NCBI GenBank assembly: GCA_041653315.1
Contig: JBAZFO010000003.1
Span: 1,180-65,179 of the forward strand
Source: Candidatus Micrarchaeia archaeon
GTDB lineage: Archaea > Micrarchaeota > Micrarchaeia > Anstonellales > JAHKLY01
Direction of reading: 5' to 3'
Length of the DNA stretch: 64,000 bases
The notes below the pieces were generated by a model. That model searched no databases. It was not told the origin of the DNA and saw only the letters and a program-made list of their open reading frames with translations. Made by a program: the position numbers and the translations under genes. Below, one piece after another: positions 17,620-58,319 of this stretch; the first letter of the stretch is position 1, and each line of letters opens with the position of its first letter.

Positions 17620-17627
17620 GTGAAATT

Positions 17628-26433: not shown

Positions 26434-27329
26434 ATAAATACATTGCAGAGGTCAAAAGGAATCTTGGAATAAAAGTTTCAGATGAAATAATTGAAAAAGA
26501 CCTGCTTCTGACTATTATTTTAGGGGAGTTTGAAAAGCTCGGGCTTGGAAAAGAACTTATTTTTAAAGGAGGAACTCTTTTATCGAGAAATTATTTGAAT
26601 TACCATCGATTTTCTGAAGATTTGGATTTTGTTCATCATAAATCCAATAAATTAAGAAAAATGAAAAGAAGAACAAGAGAAAAGGAAATTAAAAAATTCA
26701 TAGATTCATTTGTTCCAAAAATATATACATTAGCTGAAAACCTTGAACTTATATTTAGTAAAAATAGAAGTGATACAAAATTCTGTACTATTCTTCATGG
26801 AAGGACAGTATATATTTTCAGAATGTATTATTCTAACTCTAGATTTATAAAAATTGAGATTAATTTTATAGAAAAAATTATTCACAAACCAGTAAAAATT
26901 TCAATAAAAACAATAACTGATCTTTTTGATTCAAAAGAACTTGTGTTCAGTCTTGGGCTTGATATTCAAAACTTTAATATAAAAAGCTATTCTATAAATG
27001 AAATACTCATTGAAAAATACAGGGCAATTTTAACAAGAAAAGACTTAAAAGAAAGGGATTTGTTTGATTTATTTTTTATTCCAAATTCTCTTTCAATAAA
27101 AAAATCTGAAATAATACAAAAAATAAGTGCTTCATCATTAATAAAACGGGATCTTAATAAACTAATAGAAAAAAAACTTACTTTACTTGAAAAAAACAAT
27201 TTTTTTGAGAGTGATGAAAATATGGAATACCTAGCAATCGCTAATTATGATAAAAAGAAATTTGAAAAATTTAAGGAAAAAATAAAACCAAAACTAATAG
27301 AAATTTGCAAGACATTTTTAAGTAAATAG
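26412..27329 (+). CDS. AbiEii-type nucleotidyltransferase toxin (DUF1814-like)
   Basis: KGGTLLSRNYLNYHRFSEDLDFVH signature. Confidence 0.7.
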   Translation: MAQKININKYIAEVKRNLGIKVSDEIIEKDLLLTIILGEFEKLGLGKELIFKGGTLLSRNYLNYHRFSEDLDFVHHKSNKLRKMKRRTREKEIKKFIDSFVPKIYTLAENLELIFSKNRSDTKFCTILHGRTVYIFRMYYSNSRFIKIEINFIEKIIHKPVKISIKTITDLFDSKELVFSLGLDIQNFNIKSYSINEILIEKYRAILTRKDLKERDLFDLFFIPNSLSIKKSEIIQKISASSLIKRDLNKLIEKKLTLLEKNNFFESDENMEYLAIANYDKKKFEKFKEKIKPKLIEICKTFLSK

Positions 27330-36716: not shown

Positions 36717-38033
36717 TTACTTTTTTGAAATTGCTCTCTGTAATTTTTCTGCATTAAAGTCTTTTTTAACAAAAATATAAGAAATCAAAAATCCAAGTAA
36801 TACTATCAATAACCCAAAGAAAATGACTTCAATTTCTATTTGTGCTATAAGTAATAAACAAGATAATGCACCAAAAAAAGCTAAAACAGGAAACTTACCA
36901 ATATTTAAAGGGATTTTAAAATTTCTTTTTATATTAGGCATTTTATATCTCAAAACAATTGCAGAAACATTAACAATAAAAAACGGAATTAAAATTGTGA
37001 TATTAGTCATATTTGCTACAAGATTTATATTTCCTAATAATACAAATAATGAAGATAAAATAAATAATAAAATTATGGCAACCCATGGAGTTTGTCTTTT
37101 TTTATGTAATCTTCCTAGTATTTCAGGTAAAACTTTTCCTCTTGCCATTCCATAAATCATTCTTGATGCTGCTAATAAAATTAATAAAATAGTATTCGCA
37201 GTTGCAAATAATGCTATAATCCCCATTATAAAAAATGCATCATTTCCTAAAAATGAATGAGATACTACATCTGCTAAAGGAGCAGTAGATTCTCCTAAAA
37301 CCTCCCAATTCATTACACTTATTGCAGAAATAGCAACAAGAATATATAATATAGTTGAAATAACAATTGCAAATAAAGTTGCCTTTGGAACTATTTTTGT
37401 AGGATCTTTAACTTCTTCTGCCATATTTACTATTTCATCAAAACCAATATAAGCAAAAAATATTAATGCAGCAGCAGAAAATACTCCAGCCATACCAAAT
37501 TCTGCTGGAAATTCAAAATAATCAACTGAACCTAAGTAGGGAATTGCTAAAAATACAACTGCAATTAAACCTAAAATCTCTACTATAGAACATATAATAG
37601 CAAACCATGCAGATTCTTTTATCCCATAAAATAAAATAATTGATAGTACTGCTAAACTCCCAACTGCAGTTAAAATTATGGGTGTATTAAAAAATGCATT
37701 AAAATAACCAGCAAAACCTAAAGAAACTGCTGCTACTGATATAATTGGAGAAATAAGTAATAACCACCCGATAACAAATGCTAATCTTTTATTAAATGCT
37801 TTTTCAGTAAAAACAAATTCTGCACCTGCTTTAGGAAATAAAGATGCTAATTCTGCATAACTTAACCCGCTTAATGCTGCTACTCCTGCGGCAATTAAAA
37901 AAGATAACCAAACTGTATTTCCTGCTACTCCTGCTGCTTCTCCAATTAAAACATATATCCCTGCACCCAAAATAATTCCTATTCCAGTCAATGTTAATTC
38001 CCAAAATCCTAAAGCTCTCTTTAATTCAACCAT
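36717..38033 (-). CDS. APC-superfamily amino acid permease (paralog 1)
   Basis: 12-TM profile, conserved LGFWELTLTGIGIILGAGIYVLIG start. About 75% identical to the neighbouring gene. Confidence 0.8.
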   Translation of the reverse strand: MVELKRALGFWELTLTGIGIILGAGIYVLIGEAAGVAGNTVWLSFLIAAGVAALSGLSYAELASLFPKAGAEFVFTEKAFNKRLAFVIGWLLLISPIISVAAVSLGFAGYFNAFFNTPIILTAVGSLAVLSIILFYGIKESAWFAIICSIVEILGLIAVVFLAIPYLGSVDYFEFPAEFGMAGVFSAAALIFFAYIGFDEIVNMAEEVKDPTKIVPKATLFAIVISTILYILVAISAISVMNWEVLGESTAPLADVVSHSFLGNDAFFIMGIIALFATANTILLILLAASRMIYGMARGKVLPEILGRLHKKRQTPWVAIILLFILSSLFVLLGNINLVANMTNITILIPFFIVNVSAIVLRYKMPNIKRNFKIPLNIGKFPVLAFFGALSCLLLIAQIEIEVIFFGLLIVLLGFLISYIFVKKDFNAEKLQRAISKK

Positions 38034-38060
38034 AACTTCATTAAAACATAAACCTTTAAA

Positions 38061-39395
38061 TTATTTTCTTGTATTGTGAAAATGTCTTTTTTCAATTTTC
38101 TTTTGACTCTTTTTTGGCAAAATCTTATCTTTAACAAATATATAGGAAACTAAAAATCCTAAAATAATAATTGAAGAACCAAATAGGATTACTTCAAATT
38201 TCATTTGTAAAATTAATAAAACACAAGTTAAAGCACCAAAAAAAGGAATTAATGGAAATTTCCCAATATTAAACGGGGTTTTAAAACTTCTTTTTATATC
38301 TGACATTTTATATCTTAAAACAATAGCAGAAACATTAACAATAAAAAATGAAGTTAAAATTGCAATATTAGTCATATTTGCGATTATTCCTATTTTACCA
38401 ATTAAAACAAATATTGAAGATAATATACATAATAAAATTATGGCAACCCAAGGGGATCTATATTTTTCATGAATTTTTGCTAAAATAGAGGGTAATCCCT
38501 TACCTTCAGCCATACCAAAAGTCAATCTTGATGCTGCTAATAAAATCAACAAAATTGTACTTGCAGTTGCAAATAATGCTATTGCTCCTAAAATTAAATA
38601 AGCATTATTTCCTAATGAAACAGAAGCAACATCTGCTAATGGTGCTTTTGAATTTGCAAGGTCCTGCCAATTTATAACACTCACAGAAGAAATAGCTACT
38701 AAAACATATAAAATTGTTGAAACTAATAATGCAACAAGAGTTGCTTCAGGAACAACAACCTTTGGATTTTTTGTTTCTTCACCCATATTAATAATTGTAT
38801 CAAAACCTATATATGCAAAAAATACCAAAGCTGCAGCAGATAAAACTCCAGATAACCCATACTCTGGAACCATTTCAAAATAATCAATTGAATCAAAATT
38901 TGGTATACCTAAAAATATAATCATAAGTAAACCTAAAATAGTAATTATAGCACATATGATCGCAAATCTTGCTGATGCTTTTATACCAAAAAATAAGATA
39001 ATTGAAAAAACTATTAAACTTCCAATTGCAGTTAAAATTATAGGTGTATTAAAAAAAATAGCAAAATATCCAGCAAAACCTAATGCAACTGCGGCAGCAG
39101 AAATAATACAAGCAATTATTAATAACCATCCAATAACAAATGCTAATCTTTTATTAAATGCTTTTTCAGTAAAAACAAATTCTGCACCTGCTTTAGGAAA
39201 TAAAGATGCTAATTCTGCATAACTTAAACCAGTCAATGCTGCAACTATTCCTGCTATAACAAAAGATAACCAAACCATATTTCCAGATAATCCTGCAGCC
39301 TGGCCTATTAAAACATAGATACCTGCACCTAGAATAATTCCTATTCCAGTCAATGTTAATTCCCAAAATCCTAAAGCTCTTTTTAATCTTTTCAT
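38061..39395 (-). CDS. APC-superfamily amino acid permease (paralog 2)
   Basis: Tandem duplicate of 36717..38033. Confidence 0.8.
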   Translation of the reverse strand: MKRLKRALGFWELTLTGIGIILGAGIYVLIGQAAGLSGNMVWLSFVIAGIVAALTGLSYAELASLFPKAGAEFVFTEKAFNKRLAFVIGWLLIIACIISAAAVALGFAGYFAIFFNTPIILTAIGSLIVFSIILFFGIKASARFAIICAIITILGLLMIIFLGIPNFDSIDYFEMVPEYGLSGVLSAAALVFFAYIGFDTIINMGEETKNPKVVVPEATLVALLVSTILYVLVAISSVSVINWQDLANSKAPLADVASVSLGNNAYLILGAIALFATASTILLILLAASRLTFGMAEGKGLPSILAKIHEKYRSPWVAIILLCILSSIFVLIGKIGIIANMTNIAILTSFFIVNVSAIVLRYKMSDIKRSFKTPFNIGKFPLIPFFGALTCVLLILQMKFEVILFGSSIIILGFLVSYIFVKDKILPKKSQKKIEKRHFHNTRK

Positions 39396-40185: not shown

Positions 40186-40293
40186 TGGGCCCAGTGAGAT
40201 TTGAACTCACGGCCTCTCGATTATCAGTCGAGCGCTCCAACCATTTTAGGCTTATTTAAATCTTACTAAATAAACTGACTAAGCTATGGGCCC
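40186..40293 (-). tRNA. tRNA-Ile (anticodon GAU) with a roughly 31-nt intron in the D-loop
   Basis: GGGCCCA TA GCTT AGTCAG[TTTATTTAGTAAGATTTAAATAAGCCTAAAA]TGGTTGGAGC G CTCGA CTGATAA TCGAG AG GCC GTGAG TTCAAAT CTCAC TGGGCCC A. T-loop is intact. Confidence 0.65.
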
Positions 40294-44012: not shown

Positions 44013-44633
44013 TTATCTAGATAAGATATTTAGAATTTCTTTTTTCCATTTTTTAAATTCTGTAAAATCCATTCCTGTATATGTATGATCATCAAAAGTT
44101 TTAATTAATTTAATCAAATGATCAAAATATTCATTTAATTTATATTCTTTTAATAATTGCTTGTATTTCTTAAAGTCTATTCCTCCATATCTTAATAAAG
44201 TTATAATATCTATTGAATCTTTCTTTCCTTTAATTGAATCTTTTCTATCTAAATATGCGCACTGTTTTAATATTAATAAAATTTCTGGTTGAACAATTTT
44301 TATTCCTTGTATTCTAGGATTTTTCATTTTAAGAATATCCTCTACGGGTATAGGAAGTTCTGAAAAATAAGGAACATAAATATCAATATCAAATCCTTTA
44401 TCTTCTATCTCATATTTTTTAAGATTAACATTCTTTTTTAAGTCATAATTATTTTTAATTGTATATAAAGTATCCATATCAATTAAAATGTCTATATCTT
44501 TCGACTTATTAATTTTTGTATATAAAAATAAACTCCATCCCCCTATTAAAACAAAATCAAATTCTTTTGTTAATCCTTGTAGTCTTTCCCAGCTTTGTTT
44601 TGTTATATTATCAGACCAAAATTCTCTCACCAT
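44013..44633 (-). CDS. Nucleotidyltransferase-fold protein (minimal NTase, toxin-type)
   Basis: LIGGWSLFLYTKINKSKDIDILID matches the GG-x10-DIDhh NTase signature. Confidence 0.5.
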   Translation of the reverse strand: MVREFWSDNITKQSWERLQGLTKEFDFVLIGGWSLFLYTKINKSKDIDILIDMDTLYTIKNNYDLKKNVNLKKYEIEDKGFDIDIYVPYFSELPIPVEDILKMKNPRIQGIKIVQPEILLILKQCAYLDRKDSIKGKKDSIDIITLLRYGGIDFKKYKQLLKEYKLNEYFDHLIKLIKTFDDHTYTGMDFTEFKKWKKEILNILSR

Positions 44634-44700
44634 TTAAATTTCACCTCTGTTCTTCTCCTGGAAATTTAAATAATTGAAAACTTATATTTTTCAATACCAT

Positions 44701-45282
44701 TTAAATCACCTTTTTCTTTATATCATTTAGAAAATCCTTTGCATACCATTCAGGAAGATTCCATAAGTCAACAAATATTAATGGAAGGGGAACAACATTA
44801 TTTTTTGAGAATTTGTTTAATAAATTTTCTTCTTTTAAAACAATAATATTTTTTGGGCCTTCTCTTAAAGGAAATCTTTCTTTTATTTCTTTAATATTAT
44901 TTGAGTATAAATAAATTTCTCCATAATCAGCAGGAGCATTTTTCTCAATTAATTTATACCCAGAATATGCAGTGAAATATACTTCATTTGGCATCAATGC
45001 TTCAATATTTTCAGGTTTATCTGGATAAAAAGTTGAATATACAATATCTTTTTGTATATCTCTTAAAGTAGCCCAATATACAAGAATTTTTTCAAAATCC
45101 CTTAAAATAAATTCTCTTGATTTAATTTCAATTGCATGCATTTTTTCCAAAGGTTTTAATGCATTGTTTACTGTACTTAAAGAAATTCCTAAGAAGTCTG
45201 ATATTTCCTTCTGTGTAAACTTAGTTCTATTCTTGAAATAAGAGTCTAAGATGAATAAATACACAAATTCCTTCTTTAACAT
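44701..45282 (-). CDS. HTH transcriptional regulator or antitoxin partner of the downstream NTase
   Basis: TQKEISDFLGISLSTVNNALKPL helix-turn-helix. Co-directional and adjacent to 44013..44633. Confidence 0.5.
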   Translation of the reverse strand: MLKKEFVYLFILDSYFKNRTKFTQKEISDFLGISLSTVNNALKPLEKMHAIEIKSREFILRDFEKILVYWATLRDIQKDIVYSTFYPDKPENIEALMPNEVYFTAYSGYKLIEKNAPADYGEIYLYSNNIKEIKERFPLREGPKNIIVLKEENLLNKFSKNNVVPLPLIFVDLWNLPEWYAKDFLNDIKKKVI

Positions 45283-45443
45283 GTTTCTATTTAGCGCATT
45301 CTTTATTTATAAATCTTTCGATGTTTATCGAAACACATAAATTTACTTGACTTTAAATAATTTTTTAAATAAATAATTATTTTTATACTGTCTATTTTAG
45401 CTTACTTAAAAAATTGCCAAAAAAATTATCAAAAAAACAGAGT

Positions 45444-46448
45444 TCAAAATCGTATGAACATTGCATCTCCAAATGAATAAAATCTATAATGCTGTTCTAT
45501 AGCTTCATTATAAAGCTCATGCCATTTATCTCCTATTAAACTTGCTATTAATAAAAGTAAACTAGTGCGTGGAAGATGGAAATTAGTTATTAAACCATCA
45601 AATTTTAAATTAAATTTATAACCTGGATAAATAAATAAATTAGTTTCTTTAGCGCAAGCCTTAACTTTTCCATTTTTTAATGTAGCACTTTCTAAAGTTC
45701 TTAAAGAAGTTGTACCAACAACATACAAAGCGCCTTTTCTTTTATTAATTACTTCTGCTGCCTTTTTATCAATTTCAAACCATTCAAAATGCATTTTATG
45801 TTTTTTATAATCTTCTTCTCTAATCTCAGCAAAGGTCCCTAATCCTACATGAAGACAAATTTTAACTATCTCAATCCCTTTAGCTTCTAAACGTTCAATT
45901 AATTTACTACTAAAATGCAATCCTGCAGTGGGTGCTGCAACAGAGCCTTCTTTTAATGCAAAAACAGTTTGATATTTTTTTCTATCATAATTTTCATTAT
46001 GTATATATCCAGGTAAAGTAAAATCTCCTTTTTGTTTAATTATTTTTTCAATAGGTTGATTAAATTTTAATAAAAAATGAAAATCAATTTGAGATGCAAT
46101 CTCAGCAATTACTCCATCTTGAAATAATAATTTATTCCCAATTTGTGGATTTTTACATTTAACAAATGCTTCATATTCTTTATTATTTTTCTTTTTTATA
46201 AGGGTTATTGAAGCCTGCCCCCCAGTTTCTTTTTGTCCAATCAATTTTGTATTTACAACTTTGGTTTCATTAACAACTAAAATGTCTCCTTTTTTTAGAT
46301 AATCAACAAGTTCAAAAAAATGTCTGTGTTCTATTGAATCTTCTTTTTTATTATAAATTAACAAACGCGATTCATGTCTTTTATCTAATGGTTTTTGCGC
46401 AATTAATTCTGTAGGTAAATTATAATAATAATTATTTATTGATTCCAT
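45444..46448 (-). CDS. queA: S-adenosylmethionine:tRNA ribosyltransferase-isomerase (bacterial-type queuosine pathway)
   Basis: YNLPTELIAQKP...SRLL, VAAPTAGLHF, LHVGLGTF, VGTTSLRTLESA, IYPGY, ITNFHLPRTSLLLLIASL and YRFYSFGDAMFI all match the QueA conserved blocks. Confidence 0.85.
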   Translation of the reverse strand: MESINNYYYNLPTELIAQKPLDKRHESRLLIYNKKEDSIEHRHFFELVDYLKKGDILVVNETKVVNTKLIGQKETGGQASITLIKKKNNKEYEAFVKCKNPQIGNKLLFQDGVIAEIASQIDFHFLLKFNQPIEKIIKQKGDFTLPGYIHNENYDRKKYQTVFALKEGSVAAPTAGLHFSSKLIERLEAKGIEIVKICLHVGLGTFAEIREEDYKKHKMHFEWFEIDKKAAEVINKRKGALYVVGTTSLRTLESATLKNGKVKACAKETNLFIYPGYKFNLKFDGLITNFHLPRTSLLLLIASLIGDKWHELYNEAIEQHYRFYSFGDAMFIRF

Positions 46449-46491
46449 AAACTCACTTTAAAAACGTATATATAAATTGGGCTCTTGGGGT

Positions 46492-47139
46492 TTAAAAAGG
46501 TATATCTAATTTATTTATTTCTTTTATTACTTTATCTGCCACTATTAATTTTTCTTTAGGGTTAGTGGTTTCTACTGCAATACAATAAGCACCAGAAGCT
46601 TTAGCAGCTTTAATTCCATTTATTGAATCTTCAATAATAACTGTTTCATTAGGTTTAACATTTAATTTATTCATTGTTTTTAGATAAATCTCAGGATCTG
46701 GTTTTCCGTTTTTAACATCTTCAGCAGAATATAAAATATCAAAATATTCTCTGATTTCAAATTTATCAACAACTAAATCCATTAATGATTTAAAAGAAGA
46801 AGTTGCTATTGCCAATTTATATCCTTTATTTTTTAATTCAATAATTTTTTCTTTTGCTCCTTTAAACAGTTCTAATCTTTTTTCCGCTTTTTTCATAAAC
46901 AATTCTCTTCTTTCTTTTATTGCTTTTTTATTTATTTCTTCTAACTCTTTTCCTGAAAAACCTTTTTCTTCAAAAAAAGGGCCAAAAACTTCTTCTTCAA
47001 CTCTACCTATAACTTTTTCATAAATTTTATCATTCATAAAAATTTCATATTTTTTATAAATCTCAAAATTTACAATTTTCCAAAGAGGTTCAGAATTAAC
47101 AATAACTCCATCCATATCAAAAATAATTGCTTTTATCAT
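46492..47139 (-). CDS. HAD-superfamily hydrolase (beta-phosphoglucomutase/phosphatase-like)
   Basis: Motif I FDMDGVIV, motif II IATSS, motif IV EDSINGIKAA. Confidence 0.85.
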   Translation of the reverse strand: MIKAIIFDMDGVIVNSEPLWKIVNFEIYKKYEIFMNDKIYEKVIGRVEEEVFGPFFEEKGFSGKELEEINKKAIKERRELFMKKAEKRLELFKGAKEKIIELKNKGYKLAIATSSFKSLMDLVVDKFEIREYFDILYSAEDVKNGKPDPEIYLKTMNKLNVKPNETVIIEDSINGIKAAKASGAYCIAVETTNPKEKLIVADKVIKEINKLDIPF

Positions 47140-48062: not shown

Positions 48063-48521
48063 TTAAACAGCTTTTCCTGAAAGCATCCCTGTTTCAACAT
48101 GAACTGCAGTCCCCTCAGAAACAACATAATAAATTTTTAAAGGTATATTTTTGAATGAATCCCCTTCATTTAAAGAATAATTAATATCTCCTTTTATAAC
48201 CACTTGTTCACCTGGAGAGATAGAATATGGATATGCAATATTACCTAAATTTTCATTATTAAATTGAATATTTTGAATTTGTAAAGTTAAATCTGCAGTA
48301 TTTGACAAAACTAAAATTAATTCTTGATCCTCACCTAAAACTTCAAATTTATCTACCTCAATTATACTAAATCCTGTTGCTGTGTTCTCAGAATTTAAAA
48401 TAAAATTCAACATCCCTGAAAAAAATAAAACTGAAATAATAATCAAAACTAGTAAGATTGTCCAACCATAAACCATTATATATTCTATTGCACTTTGCGC
48501 TTTTTTTGTATCAGATTCCAT
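48063..48521 (-). CDS. Archaeal type IV pilin-like protein (class III signal peptide)
   Basis: KKAQSAIEYIMVYGWTILLVLIII, the canonical KxxQ-SAIEY prepilin-like N-terminus. Confidence 0.6.
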   Translation of the reverse strand: MESDTKKAQSAIEYIMVYGWTILLVLIIISVLFFSGMLNFILNSENTATGFSIIEVDKFEVLGEDQELILVLSNTADLTLQIQNIQFNNENLGNIAYPYSISPGEQVVIKGDINYSLNEGDSFKNIPLKIYYVVSEGTAVHVETGMLSGKAV

Positions 48522-48525
48522 TTTA

Positions 48526-49488
48526 TCACTCTATCTTTTGGATGTCTCCTTCTTTTGAAATATTATAATTAACCTCTTTAACTTTTAATCTTAATGGTAA
48601 ATTTATGGTGTAATCATAAGATTCAAATTCTATTTTATTTTCTAGATCAAAATCTATTTCACATTCTAAATTAGGATTATTCGGAGCATGGCTTCTTATT
48701 TCATACACTCTATAATTATCTCTATCCCAAGCAGTTCCTCCTAATTGAATATAAATCCAACAGGGCGATGATTTAATTCTTAATGAACTTGTTTTTGTTA
48801 AATCATAAGCCCCATCATTACAGACCGGACCTGGACAAGAATAAACTTGCCCTATCCCATCAGTTATATACAATTCAAATTCCATACAATTGGTTTGCCC
48901 AGAACATGAATTTCTTAAATGATCTGGGGCCCATTTATAATCATTTTTATTTTGTGGAATTGGGGCATAATCAAAAACATTATTTGTAGTAATATTTAGA
49001 ATATATTTTGTTATCTTTGAACAATTTTGAGTTGGACAAGAAAGAATAAGAACTCTTTTACCCCAGTCTTCATACTCATATTTAATATTCCAAGGTTCAA
49101 CAGTTATCCAAGGATCTAAATCTCCAAAAGAAAATTCATCTCCTTGTGTATTTAAAAATAAAATTTCTATATCTGAAGTATTATAATTCTCCTCAATAAA
49201 TTCTGCAGATTCTTCTAAATTTCCTAATATATCAAATTCAGCAGGCAATTTATCTTTAATAGTTAAGTTTGTTTCATTTTGTATAATTTCCAAATCAAAA
49301 CTTTCTAATGTAATCTCTTCTGATATATCTTCAAAAACATATAAAACTTTTTTTCCTGCAACCATATTATTTAAAACTGAAATATCATTTAAAGACTCCT
49401 TTTGAATATAAGAAGAAAAACTAATTAAAATTAAAAAAAGAAGACTTATAGACAATGAAAATAAAAATCCTTTTTTCATTTTTTCCAA
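48526..49488 (-). CDS. Secreted hypothetical protein in the pilus locus
   Basis: Signal peptide and Cys-rich C-terminal half. Confidence 0.4.
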   Translation of the reverse strand: MEKMKKGFLFSLSISLLFLILISFSSYIQKESLNDISVLNNMVAGKKVLYVFEDISEEITLESFDLEIIQNETNLTIKDKLPAEFDILGNLEESAEFIEENYNTSDIEILFLNTQGDEFSFGDLDPWITVEPWNIKYEYEDWGKRVLILSCPTQNCSKITKYILNITTNNVFDYAPIPQNKNDYKWAPDHLRNSCSGQTNCMEFELYITDGIGQVYSCPGPVCNDGAYDLTKTSSLRIKSSPCWIYIQLGGTAWDRDNYRVYEIRSHAPNNPNLECEIDFDLENKIEFESYDYTINLPLRLKVKEVNYNISKEGDIQKIE

Positions 49489-49901
49489 ACCTCAACCTCA
49501 AGATATCCTCTTTTTATTACATTATAGTCATTTGTATCAAAAAAAACTCTTCTTGAAGAGACAACAATCTCACCAGGTACATTATAATCAGTAGAATACG
49601 CAGTTGTATCAATAATTATATTGGCATTATACTCATATTCTTCCCCAAAAAGAGAATTTAATTCAGATTCAATAAAAATTTTTCCTTGCTGTGTATTTAA
49701 CCATAAAATTTCATCTAACCTATCATTATTATCTAACATCGTTAAAGCACTATCAACGTATCTTTTCATTAATAAAATTTCAGTATTATTTTGCTCTTCT
49801 TTTAATAACTGAGGAAGTGCACCAATTATAATTATTAATATTAACAAAGAAATTAATGCATCAGTTGCAAAACTTATTCCTTTTTTGCATTTTAATTCCA
49901 T
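49476..49901 (-). CDS. Pilin-like protein (class III signal peptide)
   Basis: KKGISFATDALISLLILIIIIG N-terminus. Confidence 0.5.
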   Translation of the reverse strand: MELKCKKGISFATDALISLLILIIIIGALPQLLKEEQNNTEILLMKRYVDSALTMLDNNDRLDEILWLNTQQGKIFIESELNSLFGEEYEYNANIIIDTTAYSTDYNVPGEIVVSSRRVFFDTNDYNVIKRGYLEVEVWKK

Positions 49902-50416
49902 AATCCAACCTCAATAGTTACTTCCTCATTTTCATATGTTGCATATTCTTTAATAATACTTATTTGAGAAACATTAGAAGTATTCAAAGGTAAAAAAGTT
50001 CCTATTCTTGTTTCATTACCAGAAATATTAAGTAAAGTATCATTAAGATATCTAATATCTATAAAAACATTGAACTCTCCTGCATTAATTGAATTATATA
50101 ATTGTTCGTCACTAAGTTTAACAAATTCTTTAAGTTTTTGGCTATTTATCTCTCCCCGAATCTCACATAAACCCAATCTACTAACATTTTCACATCCCCA
50201 ATTTTTTGGATATCCTGGACTTTCAATTAAAGTATCTAAAATTGCTATTGTTTTGACCATAATATCATTATCTAGTTTTTCATTTTTCAAATCTTCATAT
50301 AAATTAAAAAAAATAAATAAAACTATAAAAAATAATGGAATAACTATAAATAATTCAAATGAAAATGTTTGTCCTTTATATTTCTTCAATATATACAACT
50401 CCTTCTTTGTTTTCAA
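49892..50416 (-). CDS. Pilin-like protein
   Basis: YKGQTFSFELFIVIPLFFIVL N-terminus. Confidence 0.5.
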   Translation of the reverse strand: MKTKKELYILKKYKGQTFSFELFIVIPLFFIVLFIFFNLYEDLKNEKLDNDIMVKTIAILDTLIESPGYPKNWGCENVSRLGLCEIRGEINSQKLKEFVKLSDEQLYNSINAGEFNVFIDIRYLNDTLLNISGNETRIGTFLPLNTSNVSQISIIKEYATYENEEVTIEVGLWN

Positions 50417-50828
50417 TTTTATACTCTCCTAAATTTAAATTAAATGGGGGCTCTATAATATTCTCCCCTTCTTTTTTAAATAAATATATATTATTAAACC
50501 CAGAAAAATATTTGTTTGAACCAATTGATGCAATAATATAATTTTTTTCTACATATATAGAATAATTTTTTTCTATAATATAAGAAGTATCAAAAAATAA
50601 TGGCATCTCAACTGAATATCCGTCAGAGTATGAAGCAAGATCTAATTGTTTTGAAAAAGAATCTAATACTTTTTTAACTTCAACTTGTTCTTTATATATT
50701 TTAGTTTCATATTCAAAATCATATATTTTAACCCATACAATTAAAAAAATTAAAATTAAAAAAATAAAAACAAATAAAAATTCTGTTGATATTGTTCCTT
50801 TTTTAATATTGAGATTAATTGGCTTCAC
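50376..50828 (-). CDS. Pilin-like protein
   Basis: KKGTISTEFLFVFIFLILIFLIV N-terminus. Confidence 0.5.
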   Translation of the reverse strand: MKPINLNIKKGTISTEFLFVFIFLILIFLIVWVKIYDFEYETKIYKEQVEVKKVLDSFSKQLDLASYSDGYSVEMPLFFDTSYIIEKNYSIYVEKNYIIASIGSNKYFSGFNNIYLFKKEGENIIEPPFNLNLGEYKIENKEGVVYIEEI

Positions 50829-51225
50829 TTATCAACACCTCGCCCCCAACATATTCTAAGGAAATAATATTTGAACCACCAGAAGTGGGAAGATATCCAG
50901 TAAGATTTCTTTTTGCAATTGAAAAAACATCTGTTCCATTAGTATAAGTTAATATCCTATAATTTATCTCTTTACCCTCTAAAAAAGAATTATTTACATC
51001 AATATTATAAGGTAATTCAATAGTTATTTTTGTTTTTGAACCTTCCCCATTCGCAGTTAAATAATCTGCAGCACTAGTTATTCTATCACAAGCAATCTCA
51101 GCTTTTGAAACAGCTAAGGTAACTTGCACCTGCATCATTGCAATATAAAAAACAGGTAAAATTATTATCAAGGAAATCATAACAATAAAAACATATTCAA
51201 TACTCACTTGTCCTTTAAATTTCAT
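50815..51225 (-). CDS. Pilin-like protein
   Basis: MKFKGQVSIEYVFIVMISLIIIL N-terminus. Confidence 0.55.
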   Translation of the reverse strand: MKFKGQVSIEYVFIVMISLIIILPVFYIAMMQVQVTLAVSKAEIACDRITSAADYLTANGEGSKTKITIELPYNIDVNNSFLEGKEINYRILTYTNGTDVFSIAKRNLTGYLPTSGGSNIISLEYVGGEVLISEAN

Positions 51226-51335
51226 AGCAATATTAAAAATGAAAATATTATAAATTATTCTTTCCTCAAAAAATATGACGAAACTATTAAAAACTAATTT
51301 GCAGAAGGATTTGTATTATATCAAAAGGTAATTAT

Positions 51336-51845
51336 ATGGAAAATGAAGACACATGTAAAATTGAAACAAAAATTGATGAAATATTAAAATGGATAGAAAA
51401 TGAGGATATAACAGTTAAAGATATAAAAAATAGATATGGATTCACAGATTCAGAGATACACAAACTTCTTGATATCCTAAAAGAAAGCGGGCTTATTGAA
51501 GTTTCTTATTCATTATTATTTTTTAACAGAACAAAACTAATCAACCCACAAAAAAAGATAAATAAAAAAGAAAAAAAAGAGGAGGATCTTCAACTTGCGT
51601 TACGTTCTGAAAGATCAATAATAAATTTAAAAGAAAGAATAAAATGCATAAAAAAAGATACAAACGCAATTTTAATTAAAAATAAAAAAAGATTAGAAAA
51701 AGCAAAAAAAGAAAAAAAACTTAATAATAAAGAGATATCAAAAATTAAACAAAATTTAGATGAGATAAATTATCAGATTAAAGAAATAGATAAAAATTTA
51801 AAAACATTTGAAAATTTTATTATTAATTTAAAAAAGGGGAAATAA
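51336..51845 (+). CDS. Coiled-coil protein with possible N-terminal wHTH; pilus-locus accessory
   Basis: K/E-rich heptad-like sequence. First gene of the plus-strand pilus operon. Confidence 0.35.
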   Translation: MENEDTCKIETKIDEILKWIENEDITVKDIKNRYGFTDSEIHKLLDILKESGLIEVSYSLLFFNRTKLINPQKKINKKEKKEEDLQLALRSERSIINLKERIKCIKKDTNAILIKNKKRLEKAKKEKKLNNKEISKIKQNLDEINYQIKEIDKNLKTFENFIINLKKGK

Positions 51846-51846
51846 A

Positions 51847-53397
51847 ATGAAAAAAAAGACTAAAACTGTTATTAAAAAAATAAAAAAAGAAGAAAAAAAG
51901 ATATCTCAAAAAGAAGAGGGAGAATTTTATTCATTAGATTACTGCGGTATTAATATACCAATTCATATAAAGAAAGACAAAGATGAAAAAATAAAAATTT
52001 ATGAAATACAAAAAAAAGAAACTGGAAAAGCAACAGAAGCAGTATTAGAATACATTAAAAAAGAAATGATTAGGGAAGTTGAAAGAAAAATTGGTGGAAA
52101 AAAAGATATCAGTGAAGAAGAAATAGAAAACGAAATTATGGATAAAATAAAAAACTTATTAAAAACAAAGATAATTGGAGTAAATGAAAAAGAAGTTGAA
52201 ATTTTGTCAGCAAAAATAAGACATGATTTATTTGGATTAGGGGAAATAGACTTATTACTAGCAGATCCAAATTTAGAAGAAATCGTAATTAATTCAAGTA
52301 AAGAATCAATTCAAGTTTTTCATAAAAAATATGGATGGTTAAAAACTAATTTAAAAATATCAAACGAACAACAAATTAAGAATTACGCAGATATTATTGC
52401 AAGGAAAGTTAATAGACAAATAACAACGTTAACTCCGATTTTAGACGCAAATTTACCAAGTGGTGAAAGAGCAAATGCAGTATTAAATCCAGTGGCTTCA
52501 AAAGGTAATTCAATAACTTTAAGAAAATTTGAAAAAAATCCTTGGTCCTTACCAAGAATGATCACAGAAGAATCTAAAACTATGAGTATTGAAGTAGCTG
52601 CATTATTATGGATGTGCATAGAATATGAAATGAATATTATTGTTGCTGGAGGAACAGCCTCAGGTAAAACTTCAGTAATAAACGCACTTCTTAACTTTAT
52701 TCCCCCAAATCAAAGAATAATCTCTATTGAAGACACAAGAGAATTATATTTACCTGATTATTTACATTGGGTTCCAATGGTTACAAGAAAACCGAATTTA
52801 GAAGGAAAAGGAGAAATCACTATGCTTGATTTGCTGGTCAATTCCCTAAGAATGAGACCAGATAGAATAATTGTTGGAGAAGTAAGAAGACAAAGAGAAG
52901 CAGAAGTTATGTTTGAAGCAATGCATACTGGACATTCTGTTTATGGAACAATTCATGCAGATAATGCAGATTTAACAAGAAAAAGATTAATTAACCCTCC
53001 AATAAGTCTACCAGAAAGTACAATAACCAGTATCCATTTAATATTAGTTCAATACAGACACAGAAAAAAAGGGATAAGAAGAACATTTGAAGTTGCAGAA
53101 ATACTTCCAATAGGAGAAGGAGAAAAATCCAAAGTCAATGTAATATATCGCTGGAATTCAAGAACTGATAAATTAGAAAAGATTGGAAAATCAGAAAGAG
53201 TAATAGATGAATTAATGCTATATAGTGGATTAGATAAAAAAGGAATTGAAAACGAATTAAAAGAAAAAGAAATGATTTTAGAATACATGATTAAAAACAA
53301 AATTTTTGATATTGATGAAATAGAAAAAATAGTCGCAAATTATTATGATAATCAAGAAGCAACTGTTAAAGAAATAAAAGAAAAAATGAAGAGGTAA
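51847..53397 (+). CDS. Type IV pilus/archaellum-family secretion ATPase (TadA/CpaF/FlaI-like)
   Basis: Walker A IIVAGGTASGKTS, DTRE box, Walker B/His box region GEVRRQREAEVMFEAMHTGH. Confidence 0.85.
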   Translation: MKKKTKTVIKKIKKEEKKISQKEEGEFYSLDYCGINIPIHIKKDKDEKIKIYEIQKKETGKATEAVLEYIKKEMIREVERKIGGKKDISEEEIENEIMDKIKNLLKTKIIGVNEKEVEILSAKIRHDLFGLGEIDLLLADPNLEEIVINSSKESIQVFHKKYGWLKTNLKISNEQQIKNYADIIARKVNRQITTLTPILDANLPSGERANAVLNPVASKGNSITLRKFEKNPWSLPRMITEESKTMSIEVAALLWMCIEYEMNIIVAGGTASGKTSVINALLNFIPPNQRIISIEDTRELYLPDYLHWVPMVTRKPNLEGKGEITMLDLLVNSLRMRPDRIIVGEVRRQREAEVMFEAMHTGHSVYGTIHADNADLTRKRLINPPISLPESTITSIHLILVQYRHRKKGIRRTFEVAEILPIGEGEKSKVNVIYRWNSRTDKLEKIGKSERVIDELMLYSGLDKKGIENELKEKEMILEYMIKNKIFDIDEIEKIVANYYDNQEATVKEIKEKMKR

Positions 53398-53401
53398 TAT
53401 A

Positions 53402-54274
53402 TTGGCAATTCCATTTAATGTTTTACCAGAAAAAACAATTTGTTCGTTAGCATCTAAACTGCCCTCCTTGGGATATTGGACTATTCAAAAATTACCATTT
53501 ATACGAAAAGATTTAGATTCAGCCAATATAGAAAATTTTACTGCAGAAGAATATGGTGCAATAATATTTATTGTATCATTTATTAATAGTTTATTAATAG
53601 GATTAATTCTTACTTTATTAAATATAGCACTTAAATTAAATATTATTTTTTTAGTTATACTCATTTCAATAACAATTTTTATTTTCAGTTTCATTTCCTT
53701 AGTACTTTATCCAAAAATAAATGCAAAAAAAAGAATTAGAGATATTGATTCAAATTTAATACCTGCATTAAGACATTTATTAATAGAAATGAAATCTGGA
53801 GTGACATTATTTCAAAGTATGAGGAGCGTTTCAAGAGAATATGGGGAAGTTTCTAAAGAATTTTTAAAAATAGTAGATTCAATTGAAACTGGTATGGATG
53901 AATCAAAAGCACTAAAAGAAGCAGGAAGGAAAGTTCCTTCTCAAAAATTTAGAAAAATATTATGGCAAATAGGTAATACTTTAGTAACTGGTGCAGATAT
54001 TGTAAAAGAATTAGATGATTTAGTTCAAGAATTACGAAGAGGCCATGTTGAAGACATCAAAAAATATACACAAGAATTAAACCCATTAACTATGTTATAT
54101 ATGGTAATTGGTATTGTTTTACCTGCACTTGGAATTAGTTTAATTAATTTATTTCTTTCATTTTTAAGTATCAATATTCCTATGATATTCATCTGGTTAG
54201 TCCCTGTGTTCCTTGCAATATTTAATATATTTTTTATTTATTCAATTAGAAGCAGAATCCCTATGATATATTAA
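53402..54274 (+). CDS. TadC/FlaJ-like pilus platform membrane protein (T2SS-F domain), part 1
   Basis: TM helices plus the cytoplasmic domain LRHLLIEMKSGVTLFQSMRSV...ETGMDESKALKEA. Confidence 0.65.
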   Translation: MAIPFNVLPEKTICSLASKLPSLGYWTIQKLPFIRKDLDSANIENFTAEEYGAIIFIVSFINSLLIGLILTLLNIALKLNIIFLVILISITIFIFSFISLVLYPKINAKKRIRDIDSNLIPALRHLLIEMKSGVTLFQSMRSVSREYGEVSKEFLKIVDSIETGMDESKALKEAGRKVPSQKFRKILWQIGNTLVTGADIVKELDDLVQELRRGHVEDIKKYTQELNPLTMLYMVIGIVLPALGISLINLFLSFLSINIPMIFIWLVPVFLAIFNIFFIYSIRSRIPMIY

Positions 54275-54283
54275 TGTGATAAT

Positions 54284-55429
54284 ATGAAAAAAAAGAAATT
54301 AAGAAACAAAAAACAAATTACAAAAGTAAAACCTAAAGAAAAAAATACAATAATTGAAAAAAAAGAAATTAAAAAAGATACTGGAATACATGTATTACAA
54401 AGAACAATATCAAAAATATTTCCATCTAGTTTTATTAAATACATAGATAAATTAATAATAGAAAGTGATGAAGATACGGATACGCGAGAGTACCTTGGAA
54501 TTCGCATTTTAAAGTCACTTGCAATAGGAATTCTTGTATTTATTATTTCCCAAGTATTTACTCAAACATTAATCTCTATCTCTTTTGGATTTATTATTTT
54601 TATATTATTTTTTATTTGGGCAATTGTACGATTAATGTTAAAAGCAAATCAAAGAGCAACAGACATAGAAAAAGATTTACCAGAGATATTGCAAATGATA
54701 TCTGCTAATATGAGAGCAGGAATGACTGTTGAAAGAGCGGTTACAGAAACAGTTTGGCCTGAATTTGGTATTTTAGGTAAAGAGATAAATAAAATCAAAA
54801 TTAGATTACATACTGGAAAATCATTTTCAGAAGCTTTTGATGAAATGAGCAGAACTATAAGATCTGAGAATTTAAAAAGATCAGTTAAACTTTTAATTGA
54901 AGGTAATAAACTTGGTGGGGAAATGGCCCAACTTCTTTATGATGTTTCCAAGAATCTAAAAGAAACAAGAGAATTAAAAGAGCAAATTAAAAGTGCAACA
55001 ACAGCATATGCAATCTTTATTTTGCTCGGTGCTGTTATAATTACTCCTGTTTTATTCTCAATAAGTGCAGAATACAGCACATTTACAGAAAAAATATCAA
55101 TGACTGAAATGGGATCTGGAGTTCAAACACAAAATGAATTTAATACTGGAGGTTCAATGGGTATTTCTGGTTTAATATCTTTAATGGGAAATAAAGAAGG
55201 AGATACAAAAAGCTCATTTAATTCAGAAACAATAGAACTTTTCTCTTTAATATGTATAGCTGTAATCTCTATTTCAAGCTCTTTTATATTAGCAACAATA
55301 AGAGCAGAAAAAACTATTTCTGGTATTAAATATATTCCTTTTGCTTTAGGAATAAGTTATTTAATTTATTTTGTAAGTAGATTTGCTTTAAGCTTTGTAA
55401 TGGGATCTTTAGTGACAGGATTTTTTTAA
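54284..55429 (+). CDS. TadC/FlaJ-like pilus platform membrane protein (T2SS-F domain), part 2
   Basis: LPEILQMISANMRAGMTVERAV...HTGKSFSEAFDEM T2SS-F-like domain plus TM helices. Confidence 0.65.
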   Translation: MKKKKLRNKKQITKVKPKEKNTIIEKKEIKKDTGIHVLQRTISKIFPSSFIKYIDKLIIESDEDTDTREYLGIRILKSLAIGILVFIISQVFTQTLISISFGFIIFILFFIWAIVRLMLKANQRATDIEKDLPEILQMISANMRAGMTVERAVTETVWPEFGILGKEINKIKIRLHTGKSFSEAFDEMSRTIRSENLKRSVKLLIEGNKLGGEMAQLLYDVSKNLKETRELKEQIKSATTAYAIFILLGAVIITPVLFSISAEYSTFTEKISMTEMGSGVQTQNEFNTGGSMGISGLISLMGNKEGDTKSSFNSETIELFSLICIAVISISSSFILATIRAEKTISGIKYIPFALGISYLIYFVSRFALSFVMGSLVTGFF

Positions 55430-55496: not shown

Positions 55497-58319
55497 TTGA
55501 AAGGTGAAAATATGAAAAAAATAAATGAAGCAGAATGGGAAATTCCAAAAGAAGGCAATATGAATGTACCAATAAAAATTATTGGAACTGAAAAATTAAT
55601 TGAACAAATGAAAAGAGACAGAACATTTAATCAAATAAAAAATGTATCAACATTACCAGGGATTATTAAACATGCATTAGTGATGCCTGACGGCCATGAA
55701 GGATATGGTTTTCCTATTGGGGGGGTTGCTGCATTTGATTTAGAAACAGGAGTTATACCTCCAGGAGGGGTCGGATATGATATTAATTGTTTAACTGGAG
55801 ATACAAAAATTCCAACACCATATGGATGGTATCTAAAAATAAAAGATTATAATTTTCTATCTGATATTTCATTAGTAACAAATGGAAATACATATCTATT
55901 CAATACTCTTCAAAATTATTTTGTTTCTTCAAAACAAGGCCAATCAAAAGTTAAAAATTTTATGTATAAAGAATATAAAGGTGAAATATATAAAATAAAA
56001 ACAACTGCTGGAATACTAAAATGTACGGAAGAACACCCTATATTTACTATAAATGGAAAAAAATCAATAGATATTTTAACAATAAAAGATATGATTTTAT
56101 GCAACCCACATTTAGGGGTAGAATATAAAAAATACAAAGGAATTGAAGAAGATAAAAAATTATCTATATTTAGTAAAATTTTTGGATATCTTCTTGGAGA
56201 CGGAACAATTTATAAAACTAAAAACAAATTTTATGCAGTAGCTTATGGAACAGAAGAAGACCTTAAAAAAATGTCAATTGATTTAAAATCAATTGGTTAT
56301 TCTTCAAAAACATATCACAGATTAAGAGACCACTGTATAAAAGGAAAAAGTTTCAAAGCAGATAATTGGGAATTACATATTTATTCAAAGGAATTTATTG
56401 AAAAACTAATTAAACTTGGAATGCCTTTAGGAAATAAAACTAAAACAAAATTTGAAATACCTAATTGGATAATAAAAGGACCTAAATGGATAAAAAAACA
56501 ATTTTTAGCCGGGTATTTTGGAGCAGAAATGTCTAAACCTAAAAGTATGAGTAAAACATGCTTATATTTACCAGATGTAACAATGACAAAAGAAACAAAA
56601 TTAATAGACAATCTCAGATTTTTTATGCTACAGATAAGCAAAATATTAGAAGAATTTGATATAGAAGTATCAAAAATCTCAATTATTGAAAATGAAAAAG
56701 ATAAAAGTAGAATACGACTACTTATTAATGGTAAACCTAAAAATTTAATAAAACTTTATTCAAAAATTGGATTTGAATATAATAATAAAAGAGACTTTTT
56801 AGCAAAATGTGCAATATTATATTTAAGAAAAAAAATTAAAAATAAAAAAGAGAGGAGTGAATTAGCAAAATGGATTAAAAATAAAAAAGAACAAGGATTT
56901 AAAGCTAAAGAAATCAAAAAAATATTAAATGAAAAAATCAACGATAGGTTCATTGAGAGAGCATTTTATGAAAATTGCACTACAAGATTAACTCTTGATT
57001 TTCCATCTTTCAAAAACTTTGTCAAAGAACAAAAAGAATATTTTGAAGTTTATGGTACATTAATAGCTGAAATCATATCTATAGAAAAAAGAAAATTTGA
57101 AGGAAGAGTTTATGATTTCACTATAGAAAAAGATCACAATTTTGTTGCTAATGGAATTATAGTTTCAAATTGCGGGGTGAGATTAGTAACAACTGGTTTA
57201 ACTGTGGATCAAGTTAAACCAAAAATTGATGTTTTGATTAAAAAATTATTTGATAATGTCCCATCTGGTGTAGGTTCAAAAAGTAAATTACGTTTAGATG
57301 AAAATCAATTAAAAGATGCTTTAATAAACGGAGTAGAATGGGCAGTTAAAAATGGATATGGAAGACAAGAAGATATTGAAAATTGTGAAGAATATGGAAA
57401 AATGGAAGGTGCAGATCCATCCGCTATATCACAACAAGCACTAAAAAGAGGAAAACCTCAATTTGGAACATTAGGTGCAGGAAATCATTTCTTAGAAGTT
57501 CAGAAAGTAGATGAAATTCTATCTCCAGAAATAGCTGAAAAATTTGGTTTGAAGAAAGACCAAGTTGTTGTAATGATTCATTGCGGTTCAAGAGGATTAG
57601 GACATCAAATATGTGGAGATTATATTGATATAATGCTTAGAGCATCTGAAAAATATGGAATAAAATTAGCTGATAAAGAATTATGTTGCGCCCCAATAAA
57701 ATCTGAAGAAGCACAAAATTATATGAAAGCAATGAAATGTGCTGTTAATTATGCTTTTACAAATAGACAAGTAATAATGCATTGGGTAAGAGAAACTTTT
57801 GATGAAGTTTTTGGAAAAGGAACAAGTAATGATATGCATCTAGTATATGATGTTGCACATAATATAGCAAAAATTGAAGAACATGAAGTAGATGGGAAAA
57901 CAATGAAAGTATGTGTACATAGAAAAGGAGCAACAAGAGCATTTGCAAAAGGAAGGAAAGAATTACCTAAAAAATATATTGATATCGGACAGCCAGTTCT
58001 AATACCTGGTAGTATGGGAACTGCATCTTATGTTTTAGTTGGAAAACAAAAAGGAATGGAAGTTTCTTTTGGTTCAACATGTCATGGGGCAGGACGTGTA
58101 ATGTCAAGATCAGAAGCAATAAGGTCTTTTACTTTTAATCAAATCAAAGAAGAAATGAATGCAAAAGGAATAAAATTATTAGCTGCAGATAGACAAGTAG
58201 CACAAGAAGAAGCTTCAGGAGCATATAAAGATGTCGACGAAGTAGTTAAAAGCGTTGCGTTAGCAGATATTAGTGAAATAGTTGTAAAATTAAAACCAAT
58301 AGGTGTTGTAAAAGGATGA
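55497..58319 (+). CDS. rtcB: RtcB-family RNA 3'-phosphate ligase (tRNA-splicing ligase) interrupted by an intein
   Basis: Exteins: ...PDGHEGYGFPIGGVAAFD...GVGYDIN / CGVRLVTTG..., with HxxGxRG-type catalytic His motifs in the C-extein (GAGNHFLE, HCGSRGLGHQ, CHGAGR). Joined extein is 479 aa. Confidence 0.9.
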   Translation: MKGENMKKINEAEWEIPKEGNMNVPIKIIGTEKLIEQMKRDRTFNQIKNVSTLPGIIKHALVMPDGHEGYGFPIGGVAAFDLETGVIPPGGVGYDINCLTGDTKIPTPYGWYLKIKDYNFLSDISLVTNGNTYLFNTLQNYFVSSKQGQSKVKNFMYKEYKGEIYKIKTTAGILKCTEEHPIFTINGKKSIDILTIKDMILCNPHLGVEYKKYKGIEEDKKLSIFSKIFGYLLGDGTIYKTKNKFYAVAYGTEEDLKKMSIDLKSIGYSSKTYHRLRDHCIKGKSFKADNWELHIYSKEFIEKLIKLGMPLGNKTKTKFEIPNWIIKGPKWIKKQFLAGYFGAEMSKPKSMSKTCLYLPDVTMTKETKLIDNLRFFMLQISKILEEFDIEVSKISIIENEKDKSRIRLLINGKPKNLIKLYSKIGFEYNNKRDFLAKCAILYLRKKIKNKKERSELAKWIKNKKEQGFKAKEIKKILNEKINDRFIERAFYENCTTRLTLDFPSFKNFVKEQKEYFEVYGTLIAEIISIEKRKFEGRVYDFTIEKDHNFVANGIIVSNCGVRLVTTGLTVDQVKPKIDVLIKKLFDNVPSGVGSKSKLRLDENQLKDALINGVEWAVKNGYGRQEDIENCEEYGKMEGADPSAISQQALKRGKPQFGTLGAGNHFLEVQKVDEILSPEIAEKFGLKKDQVVVMIHCGSRGLGHQICGDYIDIMLRASEKYGIKLADKELCCAPIKSEEAQNYMKAMKCAVNYAFTNRQVIMHWVRETFDEVFGKGTSNDMHLVYDVAHNIAKIEEHEVDGKTMKVCVHRKGATRAFAKGRKELPKKYIDIGQPVLIPGSMGTASYVLVGKQKGMEVSFGSTCHGAGRVMSRSEAIRSFTFNQIKEEMNAKGIKLLAADRQVAQEEASGAYKDVDEVVKSVALADISEIVVKLKPIGVVKG
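55788..57170 (+). mobile_element. Intein (461 aa) with LAGLIDADG homing endonuclease inserted at the GYDIN/CGVR site of RtcB
   Basis: Starts CLTGDTKI (Cys1) and ends ...GIIVSN followed by Cys+1. LAGLIDADG blocks IFGYLLGDGTIY and FLAGYFGAEMSKP. Confidence 0.8.

Follow-up and report, generated by a model that had tools for sequence, protein, structure and literature searches.

A probable QueA orthologue of long residence in a DPANN archaeal chromosome

A stretch of archaeal DNA of 64 kb (64,000 nucleotides, here termed the window) contains an open reading frame that is likely, judging from the sequence and its relatives, to encode a functional orthologue of QueA. The gene appears to be long resident in the chromosome of a DPANN archaeon (NCBI label Candidatus Micrarchaeota/Micrarchaeia) and to have a role late in queuosine synthesis. 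In textbooks queuosine (Q) is confined to Bacteria and Eukarya, and archaeosine is found in Archaea alone, where it is the deazaguanine modification to be expected. To our knowledge, archaeosine synthesis uses neither QueA nor QueH, and we know of no chemical demonstration of queuosine in archaeal tRNA. The gene is located as follows.

45444..46448, minus strand: queA coding sequence, 334 amino acids, ATG to TGA, assigned from an uninterrupted open reading frame, family models and structure alignment

An earlier note on this DNA held that archaea lack QueA. That view is outdated by Castelle et al. (2021; Front Microbiol 12:660052, PMC8204110), who described a queuosine pathway of bacterial type in DPANN and certain Euryarchaeota. 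Their paper reports QueA, QueH and Tgt in 34 archaeal genomes, of which 12 are DPANN, and the evidence given there is genomic only. It is the only paper linking queuosine genes to DPANN that was found in a literature search. A protein identical to that of the window is already in GenBank as MFA5381770.1, from an archaeal MAG and annotated as QueA. As QueA in such archaea is published and the exact sequence annotated, the present identification is a confirmation, not a discovery. What is added is another lineage, a queA gene that is old, selected, ameliorated and vertically inherited, and an archaeal QueA clade. It is also added that the associated Tgt is, by sequence, of the position-34 type and not ArcTGT, that it belongs to an unusual subfamily, and that the genes are usually dispersed. 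If the Tgt/QueA/QueH set works in DPANN organisms, Q would be a modification of all three domains. Genome-reduced symbionts would then depend on the preQ1 of their partners, a possible metabolic tie to hosts. That idea is already in print (Castelle et al. 2021; PMC8204110).

Profile searches identify the product as tRNA preQ1(34) S-adenosylmethionine ribosyltransferase-isomerase (QueA), a single-domain protein, in agreement with the assignment made in the earlier note. The match to Pfam family PF02547 (Queuosine_synth) runs from position 2 to the last, 322, of the profile (368.9 bits, E 2.7e-110). The product also clears the curated thresholds of two NCBIfam equivalogs for QueA, scoring 388.3 bits on NF001140 (cut-off 324) and 343 bits on TIGR00113 (cut-off 267.45), with matches that span residues 4-333. 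Full-length alignments are also obtained with the solved QueA structures of T. maritima (1VKY, E 4.8e-79, query residues 4-332), B. subtilis (1YY3, E 5.9e-73) and T. thermophilus (1WDI, E 6.5e-66).

The statement that every conserved QueA block is present holds for the signature blocks AAPTAGLHF, LHVG.GTF, VGTT..R.LE, TNFHLP and YRF.S.GDAM, but not for every conserved position. Among 27 phylogenetically diverse bacterial QueAs, 87 alignment columns reach 95% conservation or more; the window protein retains 73 of these near-invariant columns and departs from 14, e.g., residues 66-68 are NTK in place of PAR, and PLPPYI reads TLPGYI. Most of the changes are conservative, and they recur in much of the archaeal clade described below rather than being private to the window protein. 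Residue retention is supportive of a QueA identity and non-decisive, as the roles of single residues are poorly defined. The window protein thus resembles bacterial QueA in its length, its single domain and its signature motifs. It differs in its clade-specific PAR and PLPPYI replacements and in the archaeal chromosome in which the gene is found. There is a further difference in gene order: most of the bacterial loci examined have adjacent queA and tgt genes, whereas the window queA is not beside a tgt gene.

The archaeal nature of the neighbouring genes, which had been remarked on in the earlier note, was borne out by a Pfam and NCBIfam scan of all window open reading frames of at least 100 amino acids. 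The gene for CDP-archaeol synthase (carS; NF003114, 173.9 bits, cut-off 148) is two genes upstream of queA. Other archaeal hallmark genes, spread over the window, encode the Hef/XPF nuclease, fibrillarin, Dph2, ribosomal protein L15e, RNase P Pop5, XPD helicase and RtcB. The G + C content is ∼25% and uniform over the window; queA has a GC of 0.267 and a GC3 of 0.11, vs 0.269 and 0.114 for 14 host genes. The HAD-QueA-HTH junctions are present with 100% identity over 2,446 bp in an independent Logan assembly (L002). The 36-55 kb part of the window also aligns collinearly, with 73-81% of nucleotides identical, to a 407-kb contig of a sister genome (NPIE01001064.1, GCA_015657915.1).

Comparison of queA with its syntenic orthologue in this sister genome, to which it is 83% identical, yields a dN/dS of 0.15 at a dS of 0.81. 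Corresponding dN/dS values for neighbouring genes are 0.17 (CarS), 0.26 (Hef) and 0.33 (HAD). The gene is under purifying selection, and its composition is fully ameliorated.

Homologue searches return the identical MFA5381770.1, then relatives of 83 to 49% identity, and then many Clostridia at ∼44-48%; the bacterial QueAs retrieved are only 40-48% identical to the window protein. A scan of GTDB genomes, seeded with aligned members of the archaeal QueA cluster, supplied the named bacterial QueA and Tgt references and gave no taxonomy for the archaeal clade described below. Among the best 80 of at least 600 matches, one is archaeal and the rest are bacterial. The phylogeny proposed in the earlier note was run as a neighbour-joining tree with 200 bootstraps, whose deep nodes are weak. 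The window QueA falls in a clade of 15 members (94% bootstrap) that includes no named bacterium and is nested in a looser group of 29, likewise with no named bacterium. All six clade members with inspected genomic context are carried by archaeal contigs, among neighbours such as split RNA polymerase subunits (A′/A″/B) with S12/S7/L7Ae, eIF5A with S24e/S27e, EF-2 with EF-1alpha and S10, L35Ae, and an archaeal-type GluRS. QueAs labelled as from Hydrothermarchaeota, Thermoplasmata and a second Woesearchaeota fall elsewhere in the tree; because of this scatter more than one transfer is possible, although the deep nodes are unsupported.

The presence of QueA had been taken in the earlier note to imply horizontal gene transfer. 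A bacterial origin is a reasonable reading because the family is otherwise bacterial, but a recent transfer is at odds with the ameliorated composition, the synteny and the archaeal clade. We infer an ancient acquisition by an archaeon from a bacterium, followed by vertical descent within the archaeal clade. Two other accounts of how a bacterial-type gene came to be in this sequence have to be weighed against that history. One is bacterial contamination, which the earlier note had itself raised, or a chimeric or mis-binned contig, in which case queA would be foreign to the archaeon. It draws on the otherwise bacterial distribution of the family and on Clostridia and Blautia, whose QueAs come nearest among named bacterial sequences, at 44-48% identity. 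Nevertheless, archaeal hallmark genes are on both flanks of queA in one contig, queA has the composition of the host genes, and QueA relatives adjoin archaeal RNA polymerase and ribosomal operons. The marker genes and uniform GC, together with the junctions reproduced in L002 and the collinearity with the 407-kb contig of another assembly, therefore exclude contamination and chimerism, whose probability is negligible. The other account is a recent horizontal acquisition from Firmicutes/Clostridia by this particular archaeon, and it is very improbable. The best named bacterial matches are indeed from Clostridia, at 44-48% identity, but the likeness to low-GC Firmicutes QueA may in part be a shared amino-acid bias. 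Moreover, queA displays no compositional anomaly, and its position is syntenic in a genome that has diverged to a dS of ∼0.8. Orthologues of 52-83% identity are found on many archaeal contigs, in a clade apart from the Clostridia branch.

The earlier note also called for a search for partner genes, which gave nothing in the window and partners in sister genomes. Family scans of the 64-kb window (E up to 0.05 for unannotated proteins) detected no gene for Tgt, QueH/QueG, QueC/D/E/F, QPTR or QueT. A tblastn search with an E. coli Tgt sequence, used as a probe only, likewise found the TGT family unrepresented in the window and in the initial set of archaeal loci. On the other hand, a relative whose QueA is 61% identical to that of the window (locus L089) has QueA, QueH and a TGT-family gene of 415 amino acids within about 5.6 kb. 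This Tgt passes the Tgt(34) model TIGR00430 (441.3 bits, cut-off 306.75) and fails the TgtA model TIGR00432 (151.7 bits, cut-off 350). In the PDB this Tgt is closest to queuine tRNA-ribosyltransferases of bacteria and eukaryotes (E 5e-88), and the archaeosine enzyme ArcTGT (1IQ8) is matched at E 7.8e-20. By these family and structure matches, the Tgt associated with QueA is of the bacterial position-34 type and is not the archaeosine ArcTGT.

With the L089 Tgt as query, a Tgt gene (P0125) was located in the sister genome GCA_015657915.1. It is at 95.8 kb of the single 407-kb contig, with QueH ∼4 kb away and QueA at 155.4 kb. When projected onto the orientation of the window, Tgt and QueH would be ∼59 kb beyond queA, past the end of the window and of its 70.5-kb contig, which accounts for their absence here. 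In a third MAG, QueA (MCC7552731.1), Tgt (MCC7552769.1) and QueH (MCC7552773.1) are all on one contig of 52.8 kb. A bacterial-type TGT, on which the earlier note had made the operation of queuosine chemistry depend, is hence found in the lineage, as a Tgt(34) together with syntenic QueA and QueH on the sister 407-kb contig.

Another Tgt (P0124, MFA5382758.1) is labelled 'Candidatus Micrarchaeia archaeon', and its accession is 988 numbers after that of the window QueA, MFA5381770.1. Its identity to the sister Tgt is 84%, in line with the 83% of the QueA pair. Because of the accession gap and the matching divergence, this Tgt probably belongs to the same MAG as the window QueA, and the gap fits a single MAG of roughly 1 Mb. 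A metagenome scan for the Tgt contig of the window organism gave the 84%-identical sister as best match. A QueH (P0246) that is 83% identical to the sister QueH query was considered as that of the window MAG and rejected, as it is from assembly GCA_964635315.1. On the basis of the sister genomes and the accession proximity, the genome of the window organism would itself hold a Tgt (probably MFA5382758.1) and a QueH.

QueH (PF02677, with conserved Cys motifs) is found beside QueA or Tgt in six loci (L005, L007, L008, L089, L091 and L092). QueA and QueH are co-localised in L005, L007 and L008, and a histidyl-tRNA synthetase gene adjoins QueA-QueH in L005/L006. Among 41 loci of at least 8 kb with this Tgt subtype, QueA is within the flanks in none and QueH in two. 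Queuosine genes are usually dispersed in these genomes and clustering is the exception. The co-localisation described by Castelle et al. (2021; PMC8204110) is seen in the relatives L089, L005, L007 and L008, but the QueA/QueH-like/Tgt cluster is absent from the window, where the partners, as placed in the sister genome, would be ∼59 kb away.

The chemistry of the late queuosine pathway in bacteria is established and is the source of the reaction steps proposed here. By analogy, a bacterial-type Tgt would exchange G34 of tRNAs with GUN anticodons (Asp, Asn, His and Tyr) for preQ1. QueA would move the ribosyl moiety of SAM onto the aminomethyl group of the preQ1-tRNA and isomerise it, forming epoxyqueuosine-tRNA with release of adenine and methionine. 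QueH would then reduce the epoxide to queuosine. The window queA may be one of three dispersed genes for these late steps, and tRNA of the window organism would carry Q34. The gene set as a whole would have passed from bacteria to archaea long ago and have been inherited since within the archaeal clade. The archaeosine pathway (ArcTGT/TgtA and ArcS, position 15) has in common with this scheme the 7-deazaguanine chemistry and a base-exchange enzyme of the TGT superfamily; it differs in that the QueA-associated Tgt fails the TgtA model and passes that of Tgt(34), at the scores given above. The same pathway was proposed by Castelle et al. (2021; PMC8204110), who describe QueA, a QueH-like protein (DUF208) and Tgt in DPANN and assign to them the final three reactions leading to queuosine.

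Bacteria that salvage preQ0/preQ1 have tgt, queA and queG/H without queCDEF and use QPTR/YhhQ or QueT importers. The archaeal lineage is similar in having late-step genes and, in the loci examined, no genes for de novo preQ synthesis (QueC/D/E/F; window and loci L001-L008 and L089-L092). It differs from such bacteria in that no homologue of the importers QPTR (PF02592) or QueT (PF06177) was found in the window or in these fetched loci. The preQ1 may be scavenged from the host or community, or may be made by genes outside the examined sequence, and by analogy with these bacteria preQ1 salvage in the archaeal clade is taken as the working model. In comparative genomics the combination of Tgt, QueA and QueG/H is read as a signal of a preQ1 route, and Tgt alone signals direct queuine salvage (PMC10723273). 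By this rule the set of Tgt, QueA and QueH indicates preQ1 as the inserted base.

The partner Tgts form a distinctive and mostly archaeal subfamily, with three features common to all 120 nearest homologues; named members among these are from Micrarchaeota, Woesearchaeota, Thermoplasmatota and Thermoproteota, with one from Atribacterota. The comparison set consists of 27 bacterial Tgts encoded adjacent to queA. There is an insertion after TDSGGFQAFSLG, where the subfamily has a segment of 24-40 amino acids vs 4 in the bacterial set. A further one follows PTRxAR(N/S)G, with 18-33 amino acids vs 10. The third feature is in the pocket motif GGL(S/A)VGE, which becomes GG-S(L/F)G(K/R), one residue shorter and with Glu replaced by Lys or Arg. 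The subfamily retains the catalytic TDSGGFQ, DEC and zinc motifs. In the TGT of Z. mobilis, the Leu231-Ala232 peptide, Val233 and Glu235 of the GGL(S/A)VGE motif shape substrate recognition. In view of the two insertions and the altered pocket motif, the substrate of the partner Tgt may not be preQ1.

These features bear on what the gene does today, where two readings other than a canonical late queuosine role have to be weighed. In one, queA would be a relic: an orphan gene left by an old transfer, decaying or functionless, whose product has no substrate in this organism. The window has no partner gene, 14 of the 87 bacterial near-invariant QueA positions are changed, and DPANN genomes are reduced and often have partial pathways; the paper by Castelle et al. 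itself speaks of a 'complete and/or partial' pathway. The earlier note had likewise pointed to pseudogenisation together with absent partners as telling against its reading. What is found is an intact open reading frame with a dN/dS of 0.15, as low as or below that of essential neighbours, and a gene whose position and sequence are conserved across genomes at a dS of ∼0.8. The changed residues are common across the clade, and partner genes are present in the lineage, Tgt and QueH both occurring in all three close relatives with enough sequence. A relic is thus highly unlikely. The second reading is non-canonical activity, in which QueA would act on another 7-deazaguanine base, at another tRNA position (e.g., where an archaeal enzyme has inserted preQ-type bases) or on another nucleic acid, with a product other than queuosine-34. 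It is unlikely as well. In its favour are the remodelled pocket and two insertions in all 120 nearest Tgt homologues, the clade-specific QueA substitutions within near-universal motifs, and the preQ1 source not found in the loci examined. Nevertheless, QueA, Tgt and QueH are above curated thresholds or are full-length matches to the canonical families, and Tgt retains its catalytic and zinc motifs. The three genes also co-occur, clustered in L089, as the canonical pathway requires, and the histidyl-tRNA synthetase beside QueA-QueH in L005/L006 fits a tRNA-GUN target. There is a small chance that the remodelled Tgt and altered QueA install a different 7-deazaguanine derivative or use another precursor (preQ0 or a scavenged queuine-like base). 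If this were true, there would be an archaea-specific, Q-like wobble modification dependent on metabolites of the host or community. The substrate specificity of the Tgt subfamily is the main route to anything new and deserves biochemical attention. The canonical late queuosine role of QueA is the preferred and likely reading.

The immediate surroundings of queA were also inspected. The gene is between a HAD hydrolase gene and an HTH/nucleotidyltransferase pair; carS, the HAD hydrolase gene and queA follow one another on one strand, 4 nt and 43 nt apart. No tRNA was detected in the window by ARAGORN. Rfam models detect two, but the anticodon of neither is of the GUN type, so nothing nearby connects queA to tRNAs that could receive Q. 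Two putative signals were read from the sequence.

46467..46476, minus strand: TTTATATATA, TATA-box-like element and candidate archaeal promoter, 19-28 nt upstream of the queA ATG

45408..45437, minus strand: three oligo-T runs (T7, T7 and T6), candidate archaeal transcription terminator, the first run 7 nt past the queA stop codon

The TATA-box-like element is inside the 43-nt gap from the HAD stop codon to the queA start, and as a promoter it would yield a queA mRNA that is leaderless or has a short leader. The promoter reading is weak because such strings are common in a genome of 25% GC. The oligo-T runs are no more than suggestive of a queA terminator, as T-runs are frequent in this AT-rich genome. 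Taken together, the local signals are weakly compatible with either a leaderless transcript of queA's own or co-transcription with carS and the HAD hydrolase gene.

The bacterial-type Tgt found together with archaeal QueA is a distinct subfamily. It is encoded outside the window, in related archaeal genomes, for example at a locus whose QueA is 61% identical to that of the window (L089) and at a further locus that also carries QueH (L091). Small glutaredoxin genes lie directly 3′ of Tgt at these and two other Micrarchaeota-type loci (L096, L097).

L089:12126-13373 (+), bacterial-type Tgt gene
L091:10001-11215 (+), bacterial-type Tgt gene
L089:13467-13706, glutaredoxin gene after Tgt
L091:11250-11489, glutaredoxin gene after Tgt
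L096:11903-12139, glutaredoxin gene after Tgt
L097:2137-2373, glutaredoxin gene after Tgt

Two insertions are common to all 120 nearest homologues of the L089 protein (P0121-P0240): one comprises 24-40 amino acids compared with 4 in 27 bacterial Tgts encoded next to queA, and the other 18-33 compared with 10. The pocket motif, which is one residue shorter, reads GG-S(L/F)G(K/R) instead of GGL(S/A)VGE (120/120), and the TDSGGFQ, DEC and CxCxxC motifs are retained. From these sequence features, the subfamily may have a substrate specificity unlike that of the classical preQ1-type Tgt. It is pure speculation that the glutaredoxin is a candidate redox partner of the Fe-S enzyme QueH.

Queuosine substrates are four tRNAs, tRNA-His among them. 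In a relative with a 55%-identical QueA, the genes for QueA, QueH and histidyl-tRNA synthetase immediately adjoin one another (L005:10001-12941 and L006:3741-6681), and because tRNA-His is one of the substrates, this adjacency may be functional. The window gene itself has different neighbors, a phosphatase gene and, just downstream, a toxin-antitoxin-like pair.

46492-47139 (-), HAD-family phosphatase (HxpB/beta-phosphoglucomutase-like), adjoining queA
44013-45282 (-), HTH protein and DUF6036/AbiEii-like nucleotidyltransferase
14551-15150, 16849-18137 and 25837-27329, similar AbiEii/NTase and HTH pairs
22211-22537, MazF/PemK-like toxin

A HAD-family phosphatase also adjoins QueA in the sister genome (L001:8680-9324), and at a further locus QueA and QueH are separated by another HAD gene, a shorter one (L008:10958-11407). 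We know of no functional link between HAD phosphatases and QueA. The HTH/nucleotidyltransferase pair is missing from the sister contig, which is otherwise collinear; the two sequences thus differ next to queA by an indel that comprises this toxin-antitoxin-like pair.

Elsewhere, the window has two intein-containing genes and two tRNA genes detected by Rfam.

10280-14251 (-), PEP synthase/PPDK-type enzyme with an intein bearing a LAGLIDADG homing endonuclease
55497-58319 (+), RtcB tRNA ligase with an intein
40194-40252 (-), tRNA gene, anticodon GAU (Ile)
14372-14431 (+), tRNA gene, anticodon UUU (Lys)

Neither tRNA is a queuosine substrate, and neither gene was found by ARAGORN in the window. 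Both Rfam matches cover model positions 8/9-63 only, without the acceptor stem; the genes may have unusual ends, or may be processed or split.

The remaining features are as follows.

5612-7935 (-), N6-adenine DNA methyltransferase-like gene (PF02384, NPPY motif) and, adjoining it, a protein that weakly matches the NERD nuclease domain
22547-24661 (-), very acidic, Cys-containing repetitive protein of 704 amino acids with a hydrophobic N-terminal segment
30554-31864 (+), large two-domain dCTP deaminase (PF06559 DCD_N and PF22569 DCD_C)
36717-39395 (-), two closely similar amino-acid permease genes (PF13520) in tandem
48063-55429, type IV pilus-like cluster encoding one T2SSE ATPase and a pair of T2SSF membrane proteins, along with a series of small proteins

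The methyltransferase-like gene and its NERD-like neighbor are a candidate restriction-modification pair. A Pfam search with the acidic protein gave no hit at E up to 1e-5; the protein's hydrophobic segment is a possible signal or lipobox sequence. The small proteins of the pilus-like cluster are without Pfam matches and display hydrophobic N-terminal segments; the cluster is kept in the sister contig. The tandem permease genes look like a local duplication, and the sister locus has one copy at the corresponding position compared with two in the window.
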